From sequence record PX880102.1: 64,000 nucleotides of DNA; one strand, 5' to 3'. A model generated the notes under the pieces. That model was not told the DNA's origin and searched no databases. It saw only the letters and a program-made list of their open reading frames with translations. A program made the position numbers and the translations under genes. This document shows, piece after piece, positions 199 through 55,461 of this stretch. Source of the DNA: a phage. Position 1 is the stretch's first letter, and every line of letters begins with the position of its first letter.

Positions 199-210
199 TG
201 AATAAATATC
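199..210 (+). promoter_or_regulatory. late-promoter-like box (AATAAATA, 7 of 8 match to T4 late consensus TATAAATA) upstream of t
   Basis: gaATAAATAtcc 18 nt upstream of the t ATG, followed by AAGGAGG Shine-Dalgarno. Confidence 0.35.
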
Positions 211-226
211 CTTAAAAGGAGGGTCT

Positions 227-883
227 ATGGCAGCACCTAGAATATCATTTTCGCCCTCTGATATTCTGTTGGGTGTTCTAGATCGCTTGTTCAAAGATAA
301 CGCTACCGGGAAAGTTCTTGCTTCCCGGGTAGCTGTCGTAATTCTTTTATTTATGATGGCGATTGTTTGGTATAGGGGAGATAGTTTCTTTGAGTACTAT
401 AAGCAATCAAAGTATGAAACATACAGTGAAATTATTGAAAAGGAAAGAAATGCACGCTTTGAATCTGTCGCCCTGGAACAACTCCAGATAGTTCATATAT
501 CATCTGAGGCAGACTTTAGTGCGGTGTATTCTTTCCGCCCTAAAAACTTAAACTATTTTGTCGATATTATAGCATACGAAGGAAGATTACCTTCGACAAT
601 AACAGAAAAATCACTTGGAGGATATCCTGTTGATAAAACTATGGATGAATATGCAGTTCATTTAAATGGACGTCATTATTATTCTGACTCAAAATTTGCT
701 TTTTTACCAACTAAAAAGCCTACTCCCGAAATAAACTACATGTACAGTTGTCCATATTTCAATTTGGATAATATCTATGCTGGAACGATAACCATGTACT
801 GGTATAGAAATGATCATATAAGTAATGACCGCCTTGAATCAATATGTGCTCAGGCGGCCAGAATATTAGGAAGGGCTAAATAA
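227..883 (+). CDS. t: holin (lysis-timing protein T), 218 aa
   Basis: Protein MAAPRISFSPSDIL...ARILGRAK is near-identical to my recollection of T4 holin T; single N-terminal TM segment; strong SD AAGGAGG. Confidence 0.95.
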   Translation: MAAPRISFSPSDILLGVLDRLFKDNATGKVLASRVAVVILLFMMAIVWYRGDSFFEYYKQSKYETYSEIIEKERNARFESVALEQLQIVHISSEADFSAVYSFRPKNLNYFVDIIAYEGRLPSTITEKSLGGYPVDKTMDEYAVHLNGRHYYSDSKFAFLPTKKPTPEINYMYSCPYFNLDNIYAGTITMYWYRNDHISNDRLESICAQAARILGRAK

Positions 884-2965: not shown

Positions 2966-2975
2966 TATTTATTCC

Positions 2976-16135: not shown

Positions 16136-16659
16136 ACTGCACTACGAGGTACTACACTAAAATCACCCGCATGAACAACGTTCAGAAGTTCAACACCATC
16201 TTCAATCCACTGGTCTGTTACCCAACCACAGACCGAAATAAATGGGGTCTTGATAGCTACAGCACGAGTTAGAAGGTCAGTAGGATCGCATTCTTGGAAG
16301 AGGATAAGCTCTGCTTCAAAGACTATAGTTTTAATTACTTCATCATTATCTAAGCGTTGTGCTCGAATCACGTAAGCTTTATTCTTATCATGCCAATTAC
16401 TTTTTGAAAAACTTTTAACCACAAACTCGCCTTCACCCAAAACACTGGTCAATGCTTTATAACCCAAACTTAGTTCAGTAGTTTTAATTTCAGTTTCAAC
16501 CAGTTTGTAGGTTTTGCCAATTTCGATGGTCCGAGCAGTCATAAAAGTTTCCTTAATTTCTAATGGTTTAACAAGAGTGCCGTACATGCTTGCTATATCC
16601 ATATCAAATATTTTATCTATAGGATTTGGGGTGTATTCAGGATTATAATTAAATTTCAT
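16117..16659 (-). CDS. hypothetical protein (180 aa) with C-terminal domain paralogous to MotB
   Basis: CGWVTDQWIEDGVELLNVVHAGDFSVVPRS aligns with MotB CAYITDQWVEDGVKLYNVVFLGTYKVIPES. Confidence 0.55.
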   Translation of the reverse strand: MKFNYNPEYTPNPIDKIFDMDIASMYGTLVKPLEIKETFMTARTIEIGKTYKLVETEIKTTELSLGYKALTSVLGEGEFVVKSFSKSNWHDKNKAYVIRAQRLDNDEVIKTIVFEAELILFQECDPTDLLTRAVAIKTPFISVCGWVTDQWIEDGVELLNVVHAGDFSVVPRSAVVAILN

Positions 16660-16661
16660 AA

Positions 16662-17165
16662 TTATCTCATTTCAATAAAATCTACAAGTTCAGCATGGGA
16701 TTTGCGGAACATTACTTGATGCCCGCCAATGATAACTTGGTCATCTGGCACTTCGTATACAGCAAGATAAAATCCTTTAGAAGATAATTCTTCACGCTCT
16801 TCTCGTGTGAACCATCTCATCATATCATATTCACTAGCGAAAGCAAAATGATACAATGCAATAAACCATCCTGGAATATGATATTCTACGCCTACATATT
16901 CTTCTTTCTCAAATTTAGTATTAATTGCTATATTAGCATTTTTAACTAATAATTTGTCTTCGCGTGGAAGAGGAATTCTTTTGTTATCATTACTATGATG
17001 CATAAAATTAGGTCTATCATAACCTACGTGTAATAACCACTCTTCGCTCCATGAATCTATTATACTCCTGTATGGCGTTATTTGAACACAAAGATTTCGA
17101 CGTATTGTTATAGCATCTTCACAATTAAGAATACTAAAAGATGATTCAACACGATAAATTTTCAT
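16662..17165 (-). CDS. hypothetical protein (167 aa)
   Basis: ORF-track start trimmed to the ATG after SD GAGGATAATAAA. Confidence 0.5.
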   Translation of the reverse strand: MKIYRVESSFSILNCEDAITIRRNLCVQITPYRSIIDSWSEEWLLHVGYDRPNFMHHSNDNKRIPLPREDKLLVKNANIAINTKFEKEEYVGVEYHIPGWFIALYHFAFASEYDMMRWFTREEREELSSKGFYLAVYEVPDDQVIIGGHQVMFRKSHAELVDFIEMR

Positions 17166-17189
17166 TTTATTATCCTCAGTAGCTATGGT

Positions 17190-17245
17190 GTTATAGTACC
17201 ACAACTAACCGAGGAAGTAAACAACTTTTTATCGTTTGGTTGGAA
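17190..17245 (-). promoter_or_regulatory. T4-type early promoter
   Basis: minus-strand GTTTAC (plus 17217-17222), -10 TACTATAA. Confidence 0.55.
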
Positions 17246-17912
17246 GAGATAGAGGATCGCACTCTTCCTCTGACGGAGCATCTTCAAGACCCATAGCATA
17301 TCGCAAAGCATACTTCATCATCAGGATGTCTTTCGCACAATCATGAATAGAATCATGCGCAACGAATCCGTCTAAAGTTCCCTTTGGAAGAGGACATGTG
17401 GTCATATCACGAACAAGCAGAAGTGCTTCAATTCTGGTACGAATATCACGCTGATTCCAGAATTTACATGGTTCTAACTTAAATGTATCAAGCTCATTCT
17501 CAGAAACGCCGTTAAAACGTTGAATATCGCGAATGAGATCAACTAAAATTGGAAAATCAAACGACATTCCACGGCACCAGCCTTGAGATTTCCAAGGATC
17601 GATGTTATGTGCATTGATGTAATCATTAAATTTTGCAATACCATCGATAGTGCTTACATCTTCATCCGATGGTGCAATATTTTTTCGAGCTTCAGGAGAT
17701 TGATTTTTCCACCATTCGATAGTGCTTTTAGTAAAAAGACGATGTCCTTTTTGGCTTTTTAAATCAAACTTGATTTTAATGCCGCGTGAAACTAATTCAT
17801 CAAATGTTTCAACTACTTCTGGATTAGGGTCAAAGGCAATAACAGCCAAATCAATAACAGCTGCCTTTTCACCGCTTCCCATTGTTTCAAAATCTATAAT
17901 AAAATCAAACAT
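17229..17912 (-). CDS. dexA: exonuclease A (DEDDh 3'-5' exonuclease), 227 aa
   Basis: MFDFIIDFETMGSGEKAAVIDLAVIAF... DEDD exonuclease motif I (DFET); same length as T4 DexA. Confidence 0.88.
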   Translation of the reverse strand: MFDFIIDFETMGSGEKAAVIDLAVIAFDPNPEVVETFDELVSRGIKIKFDLKSQKGHRLFTKSTIEWWKNQSPEARKNIAPSDEDVSTIDGIAKFNDYINAHNIDPWKSQGWCRGMSFDFPILVDLIRDIQRFNGVSENELDTFKLEPCKFWNQRDIRTRIEALLLVRDMTTCPLPKGTLDGFVAHDSIHDCAKDILMMKYALRYAMGLEDAPSEEECDPLSLPTKR

Positions 17913-18187
17913 TAAATTTTCCTCGCTAAATCGCGAATTTGACCTACAGTATAATCTTGGATATAAACTTTATTAATGGGCTCATCAATAAATTTTGCCA
18001 TAGATTCAATATCTTTTTGTATCTCTTCAAGACTGTATACTATCTTTAAAGCTTTTTCGCGAATAGTAACATTATCAGGTCCTGGATTTTCTTGAATGAC
18101 AGCTTTAACATTTGTCATAAGAGATTTAAACTGCTGCAAACTTAATTCAATCATTAATAACCGCCTTATAAAGATGGCTAATTTCAC
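17912..18187 (-). CDS. hypothetical protein (91 aa)
   Basis: ORF; paralogous to the next ORF. Confidence 0.5.
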   Translation of the reverse strand: MKLAIFIRRLLMIELSLQQFKSLMTNVKAVIQENPGPDNVTIREKALKIVYSLEEIQKDIESMAKFIDEPINKVYIQDYTVGQIRDLARKI

Positions 18188-18407
18188 CTAAAACATAATC
18201 ACTGATTGTAACAGTTTTCACTTCACCGCAAAAGAATTCTAATGCAATCAAATCTCGTTCAATTTCTTCCAATTGAAGCATTAACTTGCCTGATTCAATT
18301 TTCACGTTTTTGCGATTTTTACTATAAGCTATTTCATAAATTTCGCTCACTTTATCTTGAAGCAGATAAAACTGGTCTTTAGTTATTTCCACGAATAGCT
18401 TCCTCAA
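18147..18407 (-). CDS. hypothetical protein (86 aa)
   Basis: ORF; LEEIERDL...ISDYVLGEI resembles LEEIQKDI...IQDYTVGQI of the neighbour. Confidence 0.5.
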   Translation of the reverse strand: MRKLFVEITKDQFYLLQDKVSEIYEIAYSKNRKNVKIESGKLMLQLEEIERDLIALEFFCGEVKTVTISDYVLGEISHLYKAVIND

Positions 18408-18639
18408 ATTTAATCAGCAGCTTACAGACACTTTCATCTAGCGTAATTACCGTGTCTGTATTACTGTGATATGATTGTTTTTCAATTCGTTTAATTGCTA
18501 GTATAGTATCACTTATAAGATTAAGCTTATAAAGGAGCTCAGCTCCTGTTACCATAACACTGAGGTTATCTTGCTTATCAGTATGCTTCTTTATACCATC
18601 TATTAGACGATTTAAATATTTTGAATTGATGTTAATCAT
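18379..18639 (-). CDS. hypothetical protein (86 aa)
   Basis: ORF upstream-coupled to dda. Confidence 0.5.
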   Translation of the reverse strand: MININSKYLNRLIDGIKKHTDKQDNLSVMVTGAELLYKLNLISDTILAIKRIEKQSYHSNTDTVITLDESVCKLLIKFEEAIRGNN

Positions 18640-18645
18640 ATATCC

Positions 18646-19965
18646 TCACACATAAAACACATCATAACGACCACGAGTGACACCAACATAAAGAAGCTGC
18701 TGAGCCAATTCAGCATCTGCATAATGAATACAAGGCGTATAGATGAAAGCACGGTCTACAGACATGCCCTGAGCTTTATGGAATGTTGATGCAGGAAGTG
18801 CTTTCACTTTACTAAACTGTGATTTAGCATCCCAAAAATCACTCCACGGAGCTTTTCCACCTTTATTCCAATTTTTATACGTTTCTGCCGTTTTACCTAA
18901 AAATAAGTTAAACTTATACAGCTCTTCATCAGATGAAATTATTTTAATCTTTTCACGATAATATTCATCATCGCCGTAAGTTTCTACTGTTAAATCCCAA
19001 TGACGAATTAGATATTCTCCAGAAACACCACGAGCTTTAACAAATGTTGATGTATACTCTGCTTCTATAATACGAACTAATTGTCCATTATTAAAAATAA
19101 TTTCTGACACAGGCTTTCCATCAATTTTATATGTTTTAATTAATGGTTCCTGCATTACAATAATTTCACCAACGATAAAATCTTTATCAGTTTCAAAAAT
19201 CTTTTTGCGAATAATGCTATTTAACTTGTCGACAGATTTATTCGTAAATGCCATTACGCGATTTTCAAACAAATCATCTAATGATTTTACGATTGAAAAA
19301 TAATTTACCATAAAATCGCGTAAAGCGGTATCACCAGTAAATCCACGTACTCCGTGCCCGTCAACAACTTTATCATAAATCCACTTACCGTTGCGAACAT
19401 CAGTAGCTACATCAATAATAGGAGCATTACTGCGTTTAACTTCAGTGAGTTCACACTGATAAAAATCTTTATGCGTAAAGAATGGACTGATATAAGCAGT
19501 GTTTTCTCCTGGGTCAACAGGTCTAATTTGCTTATTATCGCCTATTCCAATTATAGTACACCACGGCGGGATAGTTGAAAGCAGAATTTTAAATAGCTTT
19601 CTATCATACATTGACACTTCGTCGCAGATTAATACTCTGCATTTAGCTAAATCCGGTACTTCTTTTTGTTCAAAAAGAACGTTTTCTTCATATGTTACCG
19701 GGTTAATTTTGAGAATACTGTGAATAGTACTCGCTTCTTTCCCTGACAGTTTAGAAAGAATCTTTTTAGCTGCATGTGTAGGAGCTGCCAAAATGATACC
19801 AGTTTCGCCCGTAGATATTAAAGCTTCAATGATGAACTTAGTAAGAGTAGTCTTACCAGTACCAGCAGGTCCATTAATAGTTACATGATGTTTCTTTTCT
19901 TTAATAGCCCTCATAACGATGTTAAAGGCATTTTTTTGACCTTCGGTCAAATCATCAAATGTCAT
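18646..19965 (-). CDS. dda: Dda DNA helicase (SF1B), 439 aa
   Basis: MTFDDLTEGQKNAFNIVM.AIKEKKHHVTINGPAGTGKTTLTKFIIEALISTGETGIILAAPTHAAKKIL... near-identical to T4 Dda. Confidence 0.96.
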   Translation of the reverse strand: MTFDDLTEGQKNAFNIVMRAIKEKKHHVTINGPAGTGKTTLTKFIIEALISTGETGIILAAPTHAAKKILSKLSGKEASTIHSILKINPVTYEENVLFEQKEVPDLAKCRVLICDEVSMYDRKLFKILLSTIPPWCTIIGIGDNKQIRPVDPGENTAYISPFFTHKDFYQCELTEVKRSNAPIIDVATDVRNGKWIYDKVVDGHGVRGFTGDTALRDFMVNYFSIVKSLDDLFENRVMAFTNKSVDKLNSIIRKKIFETDKDFIVGEIIVMQEPLIKTYKIDGKPVSEIIFNNGQLVRIIEAEYTSTFVKARGVSGEYLIRHWDLTVETYGDDEYYREKIKIISSDEELYKFNLFLGKTAETYKNWNKGGKAPWSDFWDAKSQFSKVKALPASTFHKAQGMSVDRAFIYTPCIHYADAELAQQLLYVGVTRGRYDVFYV

Positions 19966-24843: not shown

Positions 24844-24851
24844 TATTTATA
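24844..24851 (-). promoter_or_regulatory. T4 late promoter TATAAATA upstream of soc
   Basis: plus-strand tatttata is TATAAATA on the minus strand, about 32 nt upstream of the soc ATG. Confidence 0.7.
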
Positions 24852-24993
24852 ACTTACAATTTAGCGGCTTTCCAGAGTTGTTCAATAATCTCTTGGTCTA
24901 TTTCTTTAGTTATTTCATTACGTAATAAAGCAGTAAGGGCTTTCGCCCTTTTCTTATTCAACTTTTTGAGTTGGCGTTTATTTAAACGGGACA
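24852..24993 (-). CDS. small lysine-rich ORF (about 46 aa) between 56 and soc
   Basis: MSRLNKRQLKKLNKKRAKALTALLRNEITKEIDQEIIEQLWKAAKL; coordinates approximate; overlaps the late promoter; coding status uncertain. Confidence 0.25.
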
Positions 24994-25512
24994 TTAATAA
25001 CCTCGGTCTTGACGTGCGAAATTTTCAGCATTTTTCAGATAATAAAGTTTAAAGATTTCTTCCGCTGTAAGACCAAGACCCTGGAACATATTCAGAACGA
25101 AATGAAGAATATCAATCATTTCAAATTTAATTTCTAACTGGTCTTGTGGAGACAAATCAGTAATCAGAGTTTCACGACGTTCACCATGCTGCGACTTCCA
25201 AGGTTTCCATACAGCAGATGCGTCTTTTTCACCATTACTCATACCACCAAGAGAAGTCAGAAGTTCACGGAATTCATCGTCAATATAATCTTTCTGATTA
25301 CGCAACCAATCAACAACTTCACCGGCAGTAGCTAAGTCATCAGGATGACGATTATATTCAGGTTTATCTTTAGCTAAACGAACCTGCAAAGATTTCTGCA
25401 TATCAAGCATTACCTGCAGCGGGTCTTTTTCATCGCCGAGAATATCCCAATATTCATTTTGAGCTTTATCAGCGCCTTCAATCAGTTGTGAACATTCGTT
25501 AAAGTAAGCCAT
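24994..25512 (-). CDS. 56: dCTP pyrophosphatase (MazG-like dCTPase/dUTPase), 172 aa
   Basis: MAYFNECSQLIEGADKAQNEYWDIL... MazG-type NTP pyrophosphohydrolase helices; ORF-track start trimmed to the ATG after SD AAAGGA. Confidence 0.85.
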   Translation of the reverse strand: MAYFNECSQLIEGADKAQNEYWDILGDEKDPLQVMLDMQKSLQVRLAKDKPEYNRHPDDLATAGEVVDWLRNQKDYIDDEFRELLTSLGGMSNGEKDASAVWKPWKSQHGERRETLITDLSPQDQLEIKFEMIDILHFVLNMFQGLGLTAEEIFKLYYLKNAENFARQDRGY

Positions 25513-25552
25513 TATTTTTCCTTTCAATTCATGGGTTAGTAGATTAATTATA

Positions 25553-25568
25553 CAATAAATATATAAAG
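25553..25568 (+). promoter_or_regulatory. late-promoter-like box (AATAAATA / TATATAAA) upstream of the plus-strand ORF
   Basis: cAATAAATAtataaa 22 nt upstream of the ATG at 25584. Confidence 0.3.
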
Positions 25569-25583
25569 CAATAAGGAGGACAT

Positions 25584-25784
25584 ATGGTACAAAAATTAAT
25601 GGCACTTGTTAATGCCATCAAAGGTAATAAGAAACGTATAGCTTTTACTATTTCTGCTATGGTAGGAATTTTACTCTGGAACTTTATTTTATCACCAATT
25701 GCAATTGCGCATGGTGTTAATATTCCAGTAGTTACTCTTGATACATTCGTAGATCTAGCATTTGCTTTAGTTGGGTTGATTTAA
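25584..25784 (+). CDS. small membrane protein (66 aa) on the opposite strand to the surrounding early genes
   Basis: strong SD AAGGAGG 6 nt before the ATG; two hydrophobic segments; fills the gap between 56 and 61. Confidence 0.5.
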   Translation: MVQKLMALVNAIKGNKKRIAFTISAMVGILLWNFILSPIAIAHGVNIPVVTLDTFVDLAFALVGLI

Positions 25785-26809
25785 ATCTTAGCATATTTAG
25801 ATAGCCGCATTTTAGCCATCAACCCCTGGGCAATATTATTTTTCATATATTCCATAATTTGTTCAGGGGTTGCACCTTCCTTTCTAATCATATCATTAAC
25901 ATCTTTAGATTTCCAGGGAGATTTATCCCAAAACATAACCCTTTCTCCTGCATCAACTAATTTAGTCATTCGTTTGATAGTGTCAGGGTGACGAGGTTCA
26001 TTATCTAAAACCCACACTCGTCTATCTTTAAATGGAACAATTTCTAGGTCTAATTGACCACCCGTAATAGCTATACCATTTTCAATAAAAAGTGAATCTA
26101 TAGGTCCTTCTAGAACATATACATCGCCATCTTTAACTCGTTCGACTCCATAGATTTTTGTTGCCTCAGGATAAGCTTTAATGGTGATATATTTTTGAGG
26201 AGCATTTTTCTTTAATGCACGCCCTTGAAACGACTCGGCTTTTCCGTTAGCATTATAAATTGGAATAACAAGACGAGGCTCAGGTATTTCCTTTTTATAT
26301 GTTCCCGGTGCTATGCTATTAACCAATTTAGGCCATTCGGTTGTAAACCAAAGATATTTCCATTTATCCTTTGGAATACAACGAGCTTTTACGTATTTTA
26401 TAATTGGATGGTCTTCCGCCAGTTTATCTAATCTAACACATGACGGAAGAGATTTAATTATTTTCTTCTCAGGTTGTTTAGGAAGTTCTTTAGGTTTTTC
26501 TACTGGACGACTTTTACCTTTTTCTTTTCTTATTTCAAAGATATACTCACGATATAAATCAGGTTCAAACTCCTTTAAATATATTCCGATTGGTGCGTGA
26601 TAGTTACAGTTATAACAATGAATATTTCCTTCATTATTATCACCATAATACCATCCACGAGCTTTATTCTGGTCGGTTTTTGAATCTCCACAAACGGGGC
26701 ATCTAAACCGCAATTTAAAAGTTGAACTATTATTTACTTGTGTGAATTTAGGTAAATGAGCCAATGCACGATACGCAAACTCATTATCAATCCAAGGTAT
26801 TGATGACAT
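25781..26809 (-). CDS. 61: DNA primase (zinc ribbon plus TOPRIM), 342 aa
   Basis: MSSIPWIDNEFAYRALAHLPKFTQVNNSSTFKLRFRCPVCGDSKTDQNKARGWYY...; same length as T4 gp61. Confidence 0.95.
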   Translation of the reverse strand: MSSIPWIDNEFAYRALAHLPKFTQVNNSSTFKLRFRCPVCGDSKTDQNKARGWYYGDNNEGNIHCYNCNYHAPIGIYLKEFEPDLYREYIFEIRKEKGKSRPVEKPKELPKQPEKKIIKSLPSCVRLDKLAEDHPIIKYVKARCIPKDKWKYLWFTTEWPKLVNSIAPGTYKKEIPEPRLVIPIYNANGKAESFQGRALKKNAPQKYITIKAYPEATKIYGVERVKDGDVYVLEGPIDSLFIENGIAITGGQLDLEIVPFKDRRVWVLDNEPRHPDTIKRMTKLVDAGERVMFWDKSPWKSKDVNDMIRKEGATPEQIMEYMKNNIAQGLMAKMRLSKYAKI

Positions 26810-26811
26810 TT

Positions 26812-26976
26812 TTACTCTTCTTTTTCTTTAGATTCCTCTTTTTTCTTTTTAGGAATCTGTTCAGGACCTTTATTTACTACAGCACCTGATGTTGTTCCAG
26901 TAGAGATATTTTCAGGATTACCACCTGAATCTCCAGCAACCATATCTTCTTTAATAAATTCTTTATATGTTTTCAT
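26812..26976 (-). CDS. small acidic/lysine-rich ORF (54 aa)
   Basis: MKTYKEFIKEDMVAGDSGGNPENISTGTTSGAVVNKGPEQIPKKKKEESKEKEE; not in ORF track; low-complexity. Confidence 0.35.
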   Translation of the reverse strand: MKTYKEFIKEDMVAGDSGGNPENISTGTTSGAVVNKGPEQIPKKKKEESKEKEE

Positions 26977-37426: not shown

Positions 37427-37648
37427 TTAAATTAATACCACTTGTCGGTGAAAAATTGTCAATCCATCTGCATTAATTGACTTAACCACTGCTGTAAAGT
37501 GTTTTTGTTCTGGGTGAACTAATTTTTGAAATTCTACCTGAAATTTTAGTTGGAGGTTTTCCGGTAAATCAAAAAGTGTTTCTGTTGCAGAAAGATTATA
37601 TTTTTCTTTAAGAGACGCCATGTATTCTTGCGAGGTTATAGCAGTCAT
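37427..37648 (-). CDS. hypothetical protein (73 aa)
   Basis: start taken as the ATG immediately after the regA stop. Confidence 0.45.
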   Translation of the reverse strand: MTAITSQEYMASLKEKYNLSATETLFDLPENLQLKFQVEFQKLVHPEQKHFTAVVKSINADGLTIFHRQVVLI

Positions 37649-37649
37649 A

Positions 37650-52601: not shown

Positions 52602-52642
52602 AATAAACCCTTACCTTAAATAGATAAGGGTATTTATTATTT

Positions 52643-54535: not shown

Positions 54536-55461
54536 TTCAATACCTCAATAGCATTACGTAAACCATTTGCTTTCGCATTAAGAGCTTTTAACAATTTGGT
54601 GTGTTCGGCAATCTGGGCTTCAACTTCAATCAAACGAGCATTGAGATATTCACGTTCTTCGCTCAAGTTATCAATCTTTTCTACTTTAGGCTCTTTTACA
54701 ACTGTCTTATATGTATTAGGGTTCTTCAGTTTAATTAGAATACGTGAACTGTATAACATTGAACCATTATCTTCGATTTCATCATACATTTCTACTACGT
54801 CCATGATTTTTAACATCATGCGGAGTTTATAAGACAACGAACGAATAGTTTTGTTGTGCTTATTAATTTCTTTAGAGTTCATGGTGCCAAGATTACGTGA
54901 GTAATAATAAGGAACCTGGATATTAATTAACACTGATGAACCACCTGGCTTGTGTGTTACTTCATCAGCAATAACCCAATCCTTAACATGAACTGTATTT
55001 GTACGGTCATCACCAGCAGTAAATAGTTTGCGAGCATGCTTAAAAAGCATATTCACTTGGTCATTGAATTGACAAGCAAATTTATCAGCAAATTTAGTTT
55101 CAGGAATGGTAGATAACCAATCAGCCAAGTGGGTCTTTTTAACATCGTTAACAATAGTAAATTCAACCAAATCGGTTATAGATGTTGCAGATTTAATGAA
55201 GCTCGGCTTCATTAAGTTTTTAATGTTATCGCGAGCTACAGTAGAAGATAACATACGAGAACGTTTAAACCATTCAAGCAAATTGCCTAACGAATGAGAA
55301 TAAGCGTTTTGAGTATCTTTACAGATATGATTTTCCTGACCAACATATTGAAGGAAATCACGAAGAATATTATTGATTACTGCTCTGTGTCCGATTTGAT
55401 AATTACGGTGTTTAGTAATAAGACTGTCAAAATAATCAATATAATGTTTACGAGTTTTCAT
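54532..55461 (-). CDS. hypothetical protein (309 aa) with C-terminal coiled coil
   Basis: N-terminal MKTR motif; C-terminal heptad-rich segment ...[40 protein letters not shown]. Confidence 0.55.
   Translation of the reverse strand: MKTRKHYIDYFDSLITKHRNYQIGHRAVINNILRDFLQYVGQENHICKDTQNAYSHSLGNLLEWFKRSRMLSSTVARDNIKNLMKPSFIKSATSITDLVEFTIVNDVKKTHLADWLSTIPETKFADKFACQFNDQVNMLFKHARKLFTAGDDRTNTVHVKDWVIADEVTHKPGGSSVLINIQVPYYYSRNLGTMNSKEINKHNKTIRSLSYKLRMMLKIMDVVEMYDEIEDNGSMLYSSRILIKLKNPNTYKTVVKEPKVEKIDNLSEEREYLNARLIEVEAQIAEHTKLLKALNAKANGLRNAIEVLK

Follow-up and report, generated by a model that had tools for sequence, protein, structure and literature searches.

The window (the whole 64-kb stretch of DNA that was analysed) is a portion of a T4-like phage genome of the genus Tequatrovirus. 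Genes 56 and 61 lie on its minus strand and are separated by 267 bp (25514-25780), an interval that a preliminary description of this DNA had put at about 270 bp. That description had also placed in the interval a lone 66-aa ORF on the plus strand, against the direction of its neighbours and behind a strong Shine-Dalgarno sequence, and both features are confirmed: the minus strand carries every long ORF around the small one and the sequence AAGGAGG stands just before its start. The stop codons of the ORF and of gene 61 overlap by 4 nt. The features of the locus are listed below.

24994-25513, minus strand: gene 56 (dCTPase/dUTPase), left neighbour, named from annotated relatives
25547-25572, minus strand: MotA-type middle promoter of gene 56 (ATTGCTT, 13 nt, TATAAT, as read on the minus strand)
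25554-25561, plus strand: late-promoter-like box AATAAATA, the A(-13) variant of T4 TATAAATA
25573-25579, plus strand: Shine-Dalgarno sequence AAGGAGG, read directly, 4 nt upstream of the ATG
25584-25784, plus strand: small-protein ORF with ATG start, 66 codons (66 aa) and TAA stop
25591-25621, minus strand: hairpin with a T-run behind it, resembling a terminator for transcripts that leave gene 61, within codons 3-13 of the ORF
25781-26809, minus strand: gene 61 (DNA primase), convergent right neighbour, named from annotated relatives
25820-25872, plus strand: stable stem-loop (z = -3.4), 36 nt past the stop of the ORF and inside the 3' end of gene 61

Between 24900 and 26900 the window has the same sequence as Escherichia phage vB_EcoM-UFV09 (100% identity), and about 260 other records match it at 95-99%. 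The ORF is already catalogued as a hypothetical protein (QWT77004.1 in UFV09, and so entered in newer records of T4 and its relatives) and is largely ordinary for the T-even phage group. It is without annotation in the T4 reference records NC_000866.4 and AF158101.6, and likewise in the 1984-87 records X01416 and K03113.

Compared over its length with UFV09 (MZ291552.2), the window is a mosaic, identical over 24900-26900 and only 95-98% identical elsewhere. Several short stretches have no match to MZ291552.2, for example 16236-17133, 37429-37649 and 54674-55194.

Conservation of the ORF

Homologues of the ORF were found by tblastn in 693 phage records, where the frame is open; 190 of these show less than 60% identity. 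The product matches PHROG 2024 (function unknown) over its full length, residues 2-66 aligning with positions 1-65 of the 65-position profile (E = 1.5e-31). A profile search of 1.84 billion representative proteins returned nine clusters, all of them small proteins of T4-like phages, and added four more distant small proteins that led to Karamvirus, Jiaodavirus, Kanagawavirus and related phages. The ORF is present in at least six genera of the Tevenvirinae (Tequatrovirus, Mosigvirus, Gaprivervirus, Karamvirus, Jiaodavirus and Kanagawavirus). At all the loci that we fetched, from the six genera and three metagenomic lineages, the gene lies on the strand opposite to its neighbours and converges on the primase gene, and a GGAG-type ribosome site is found at the equivalent position in all the homologues.

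One metagenomic T4-like phage (ENA ERZ27245996) carries two tandem, overlapping paralogues of the ORF (locus L015, 2805-3008 and 3001-3198). A late-type box (CATAAATA) is present only before the first copy.

Between Tequatrovirus, Mosigvirus, Gaprivervirus and the metagenomic lineages the synonymous divergence pS is 0.6-0.85, which is saturated, and the non-synonymous divergence pN is 0.16-0.37; against the most distant genera pN is about 0.5. Thirteen positions are invariant in 18 diverse sequences, including W32, N33, F34, P38, G44 and P48, and D57 is nearly so. Saturated pS set against low pN, together with the invariant residues, is the signature of a protein-coding gene. Many lineages have kept the frame open and under purifying selection, so that the ORF is not a mere product of chance.

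The frame might instead be open because minus-strand signals, namely the terminator hairpin and the 56 or dam promoters, constrain the DNA, and the minus-strand hairpin and the gene-56 middle promoter do overlap the 5' end of the ORF and its leader. The hairpin at 25591-25621 is an annotated terminator in phage fPS-65. However, it is confined to the Tequatrovirus lineage and is not conserved in other genera, and therefore cannot explain why the frame is conserved. The constrained residues, moreover, are concentrated in the central part and the 3' two thirds of the ORF, and the pattern of pN and pS is that of coding sequence. That the ORF is not a gene is effectively refuted by these data and has next to no chance of being correct. 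Judged by its pattern of conservation, the ORF is a true gene that the T-even phages (Tevenvirinae) have inherited vertically.

The dam slot beside the ORF

The gene order in T4 (NC_000866), all on the minus strand, is 56 (16270-16785), dam (16846-17625) and 61 (17935-18963). The preliminary description was thus correct that T4 carries dam between 56 and 61. Its statement that dam is absent from this locus also holds: no ORF homologous to T4 Dam (DPPY motif) lies in the 267 bp between 56 and 61 in the window, and a tblastn search with T4 Dam gave no match in the 64-kb window or in the complete UFV09 genome (best E = 0.8 and 1.6, respectively). UFV09 was used for the genome-wide check as the closest relative at the locus, identical over 24900-26900.

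The contrast that had been implied, with the ORF standing where T4 has dam, does not survive the comparison with T4. Although dam is present there, as expected, so is the same plus-strand ORF (17738-17938), inside the 309-bp gap between dam and 61. The T4 ORF encodes a 97% identical protein, and it has the same ribosome site as the ORF in the window and a GATAAATA box upstream. Since T4 has both, the ORF is no stand-in for dam. Among phage records the ORF is found at 90% identity or more in about 503, whereas T4-type dam is found in 184, so that the state without dam is the commoner one; dam is absent from about two thirds of the close relatives. The finding is largely ordinary in this respect because a missing dam is the usual state in this phage group. 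In an alignment the T4 dam gene is flanked on one side by the MotA box that belongs to the gene-56 middle promoter and on the other by the late box of the ORF. We conclude that dam is an optional cassette in this phage group and that its absence is a separate matter from the ORF, and no surprise.

The slot beside the ORF is a recurrent cargo site. It is occupied by homing endonuclease genes in some Tequatroviruses (H28 and H31), by a mazG-like gene in Kanagawavirus KLB31 (locus L019, 1653-1946) and by an unannotated ORF of similar size to that mazG-like gene in Karamvirus CkP1 (locus L017, 1672-1977). The slot in Jiaodavirus (Klebsiella phage PKO111) holds a gene for a 495-aa GIY-YIG (LEM-3-like) protein and three ORFs (locus L035, 1391-4135); one of the ORFs in the PKO111 slot is labelled 'DNA methyltransferase', a label without support from Pfam. 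In Gaprivervirus DK-13 the ORF and 61 have a homing endonuclease gene between them (locus L005, 2872-3621).

Cassettes flanked by promoter/stem-loop (PeSL) sequences have been described as shuffling genes in T4-type phages (PMC2839356, PMC4122927). By analogy, the gain and loss of cargo at the slot fits this model: a stem-loop and promoter sequences bound a slot that contains dam in some phages and lacks it in others, aattataca(a/t) is a motif found ahead of both dam and 56, and the dam slot carries other cargo in other genera. The PeSL model accounts for the difference in dam but not for the small ORF.

The putative late-promoter box and the overlapping control region

The T4 late promoter TATAAATA spans positions -13 to -6 (PMC1524935). 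Of 50 listed T4 late promoters 32 are perfect, and nine have A at -13, which is the commonest accepted variant (PMC2988020). The box at 25554-25561 is this A(-13) variant and, with the box at -13 to -6, transcription is therefore predicted to start at about A25567. This is the placement of a TATAAATA-type box, for which no -35 element is needed, and an A+T-rich segment (tataaagcaataa) follows directly. No sigma-70-like promoter was found on the plus strand near the ORF.

A box of the form NATAAATA, or a one- or two-base variant of it, is located 14-22 nt upstream of the ATG in all 11 independent lineages. The NATAAATA form is found 16-22 nt before the ATG in nine of 12 upstream regions; variants in the same place are ATTAAATA in Karamvirus and TATTAATA in one metagenomic lineage, and the twelfth region belongs to a gene directly behind its paralogue, which carries the box. 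The distance between box and ATG has been kept although the flanks are otherwise unalignable and the promoter on the opposite strand shifts. The late box lies in the spacer of the gene-56 middle promoter in the window, overlaps its MotA box in Gaprivervirus and is 0.9 kb away from it in T4.

The ATAAATA core occurs six times in the 64-kb window, both strands counted, in comparison with 39.4 +/- 5.1 times in shuffled sequences. This 6.5-fold depletion suggests that the motif is avoided where it is not wanted. The copies are as follows.

202-208, plus strand: ATAAATA
348-354, minus strand: ATAAATA
2966-2972, minus strand: ATAAATA
24844-24850, minus strand: ATAAATA
25555-25561, plus strand: ATAAATA
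52631-52637, minus strand: ATAAATA

Four of the six are located 18-31 nt upstream of a Shine-Dalgarno sequence and ATG, those of t, soc, gene 49 and the small ORF. The first three of these genes have late promoters in T4, and the soc promoter is annotated in T4 record X01416. The ORF resembles them in having a TATAAATA-type box at this distance and a short leader; the box of soc is TATAAATA itself, and those of t and gene 49 in the window are the same AATAAATA variant as that of the ORF. The promoters of soc, t and gene 49 have mapped transcripts in T4, whereas the promoter of the ORF is predicted from sequence. Unlike these genes, the ORF is oriented opposite to every neighbour and is convergent with gene 61.

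A CATAAATA box at 347-354 on the minus strand is antisense inside the holin gene t and has no ORF behind it; it may be a late antisense start or a chance survivor. At 2965-2972, also on the minus strand, a AATAAATA sequence abuts the ATG of a 109-aa ORF. It forms the spacer between GAGG and the start codon and is therefore probably not the promoter of that gene.

The preliminary description had proposed two late-promoter boxes. The conserved placement and the depletion of the motif support AATAAATA; the second box, TATATAAA (25560-25567), lacks conservation in relatives and probably has no relevance. Counting against a late promoter, the boxes of T4 (GATAAATA) and Gaprivervirus (CATAAATA) are G and C variants at -13, and Nolan et al. 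list no plus-strand late promoter for RB69 at the position of the ORF. A T4 dRNA-seq preprint (Wolfram-Schauerte et al., bioRxiv 10.1101/2024.04.04.588121) gives 150 phage start sites, 22 of them antisense. The comparison of upstream regions suggests that the ORF is probably switched on late in infection from AATAAATA.

The middle promoter of gene 56, which we compared with the mot-box and -10 region that T4 record X01416 annotates, corresponds to T4 P(M)16.53, the primer promoter at oriA. A compact two-way control region of 33 bp (25547-25579) is formed here, within which the minus-strand gene-56 promoter overlaps the plus-strand late box, the predicted start and the ribosome site.

At the other end of the ORF, a hairpin is found 0-90 nt after the stop codon in all eight lineages examined. 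It is within 61 where the stop codons overlap, and GC-rich and intergenic where they do not. A convincing U-rich tail follows this hairpin in only about five of the eight lineages, a clean U-tract being absent in the window and two others. The stem-loop at 25820-25872 is a candidate 3' end or terminator of the putative late message.

This arrangement raises the possibility that a late antisense RNA is the main product of the locus, pairing with early read-through transcripts of 61-56 and aiding their shut-off, and that the peptide is secondary. The ORF and gene 61 are convergent, their stop codons overlap in most lineages, and the predicted message reaches about 90 nt into gene 61. However, the amino acid sequence is under purifying selection, with residues invariant across genera. 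Additionally, three lineages have a terminator hairpin in the gap that separates the ORF from gene 61, and hence no overlap with that gene, and in DK-13 the homing endonuclease gene parts the two. We consider it improbable that the RNA is the main product, and give a role at the RNA level against gene 61 transcripts just as little weight.

The predicted membrane protein and its possible role

Two hydrophobic segments had been claimed for the product. Two hydrophobic stretches are indeed present, but analysis of the family and an AlphaFold model (18-sequence alignment; mean pLDDT 75) indicate a single spanning helix. The model has helices at residues 2-12, 16-42 and 52-63, of which the second would span the membrane. 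The C-terminal stretch corresponds to the short 12-residue helix at 52-63, and in distant relatives the C-terminal tail is too short and too polar for a membrane crossing. The layout of the family is constant. A basic N-terminal region (net charge +1 to +6; +5 in the protein of the window) leads into a single hydrophobic core of 23 residues, centred on W-N-[F/Y/L], with a Pro five residues after this motif. After the core come [H/N]-G, a turn containing Pro, an acidic residue and finally a tail some 14 residues long, whose net charge is 0 to -2. The C-terminal 24 residues of the protein in the window are hydrophobic, with a net charge of -2 and no basic residues. From the distribution of charge and the positive-inside rule we therefore predict that the product crosses the inner membrane once, with the N-terminus in and the C-terminus out.

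The same region has some features of a Sec signal peptide, with an n-region of +5 and A-I-A at -3 to -1. The protein could thus be a precursor that is cut by signal peptidase I after Ala42, freeing a hydrophobic, acidic periplasmic peptide of 24 residues. The motif P-x-A-x-[A/S/T] followed by [H/N]-G is conserved just after the hydrophobic helix, and the positively charged N-terminal region would suit such a precursor. However, the h-region is about 23 residues long, in comparison with about 7-15 in signal peptides, and a 23-residue hydrophobic core is typical of an anchor and not of a cleaved signal peptide. Mosigvirus, in addition, has Leu at -3. Cleavage is for these reasons very unlikely, and we retain the uncleaved, single-pass protein.

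Taken together, the data suggest that the ORF is a genuine gene, that it is expressed late and that it encodes a membrane protein; we put the probability of all three holding at roughly 0.7.

Searches for a match of known function gave none in Pfam (E <= 10), NCBIfam, PDB sequences, the BFVD fold search or the 1.84 billion representative proteins. NCBIfam returned only a sub-threshold match to AaeX (E = 0.013) for one remote family member, and the BFVD search recovered only the family of the ORF itself. A search of the literature on ribosome profiling, unannotated T4 genes and a named gene at the site of the ORF found nothing relevant.

One family member is named 'Holin' in UniProt, and the product could be a holin or a pinholin-like lysis protein as that entry has it. 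It is a small membrane protein, and its late box is the same AATAAATA variant, in the same geometry, as that of the holin gene t in the window. The name, however, is an untested label. There is no match to any holin family in Pfam or PHROG, the only PHROG match being of function unknown, and the BFVD fold matches to proteins named holin all have E > 5. The class II holins and pinholins (such as S68 of phage 21) are likewise late phage membrane proteins of 60-70 residues, the lateness of the ORF being a prediction from its box. They have two transmembrane helices and a charged cytoplasmic C-terminus, in contrast with the one helix and the hydrophobic, acidic tail of the ORF family, and they give no family match to its product. 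The genes for lysozyme and spanin are not adjacent to the ORF. Finally, lysis fails in t mutants of T4, which means that T4 has no second holin acting independently. A holin function is, on balance, hard to credit.

A looser likeness is to the small inner-membrane proteins of T4: Imm (83 aa), Ac (51 aa) and the RI antiholin (97 aa, with a signal-anchor-release domain). These act at the envelope and appear similar to the ORF product in size and in having one or two hydrophobic helices. They have no detectable sequence or profile similarity to it. Imm and Ac are early genes, unlike the probably late ORF, and RI has a folded periplasmic domain, which the ORF product does not.

We propose the following sequence of events for a late membrane protein. 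RNA polymerase carrying gp55 (the late sigma factor) would start at about A25567 from the AATAAATA box, so that the ORF would be transcribed separately, as a short plus-strand unit among the surrounding early genes of the minus strand. Ribosomes would load at AAGGAGG. The hairpin at 25820-25872, which lies within the 3' end of gene 61, would terminate or protect the message of about 0.3 kb. The protein would enter the inner membrane with its Lys/Arg-rich N-terminus in the cytoplasm, a single helix of 23-27 residues bearing the invariant Trp-Asn-Phe and the Pro five residues later, and the 24-residue acidic, hydrophobic tail on the periplasmic side. In the weakest step of the scheme, the helix would pair either with a second copy of itself or with a different membrane protein. 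Where an invariant Asn stands midway along a membrane helix, it is usually a sign that helices associate, and it is the buried invariant Asn that leads us to propose this pairing. The outcome would be a late role at the envelope, which may lie in lysis timing or lysis inhibition, in late exclusion or in membrane-bound assembly.

A late envelope role through helix-helix binding is our best guess from the conserved features of the family, and a role specifically in lysis has a slender chance. A more detailed form of the proposal is that the product is an overlooked late component of the inner membrane whose invariant-Asn helix binds a transmembrane segment of a phage or host membrane protein, for example the T holin. 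The cytoplasmic and periplasmic parts of the T holin have known partners, RIII and RI. If the helix bound T, the protein would tune lysis timing or lysis inhibition. Stated in this detail, the proposal is unlikely.

The early region has very few plus-strand units, of which the ORF is one; it is probably of the late class, like the holin gene. The only point of wider interest is that the reference annotation of T4 misses a conserved, probably late, membrane-protein gene. Because the T4 reference records lack the ORF, transcriptomic, proteomic and knock-down screens built on them are blind to this gene. The practical value of the finding is small but real.
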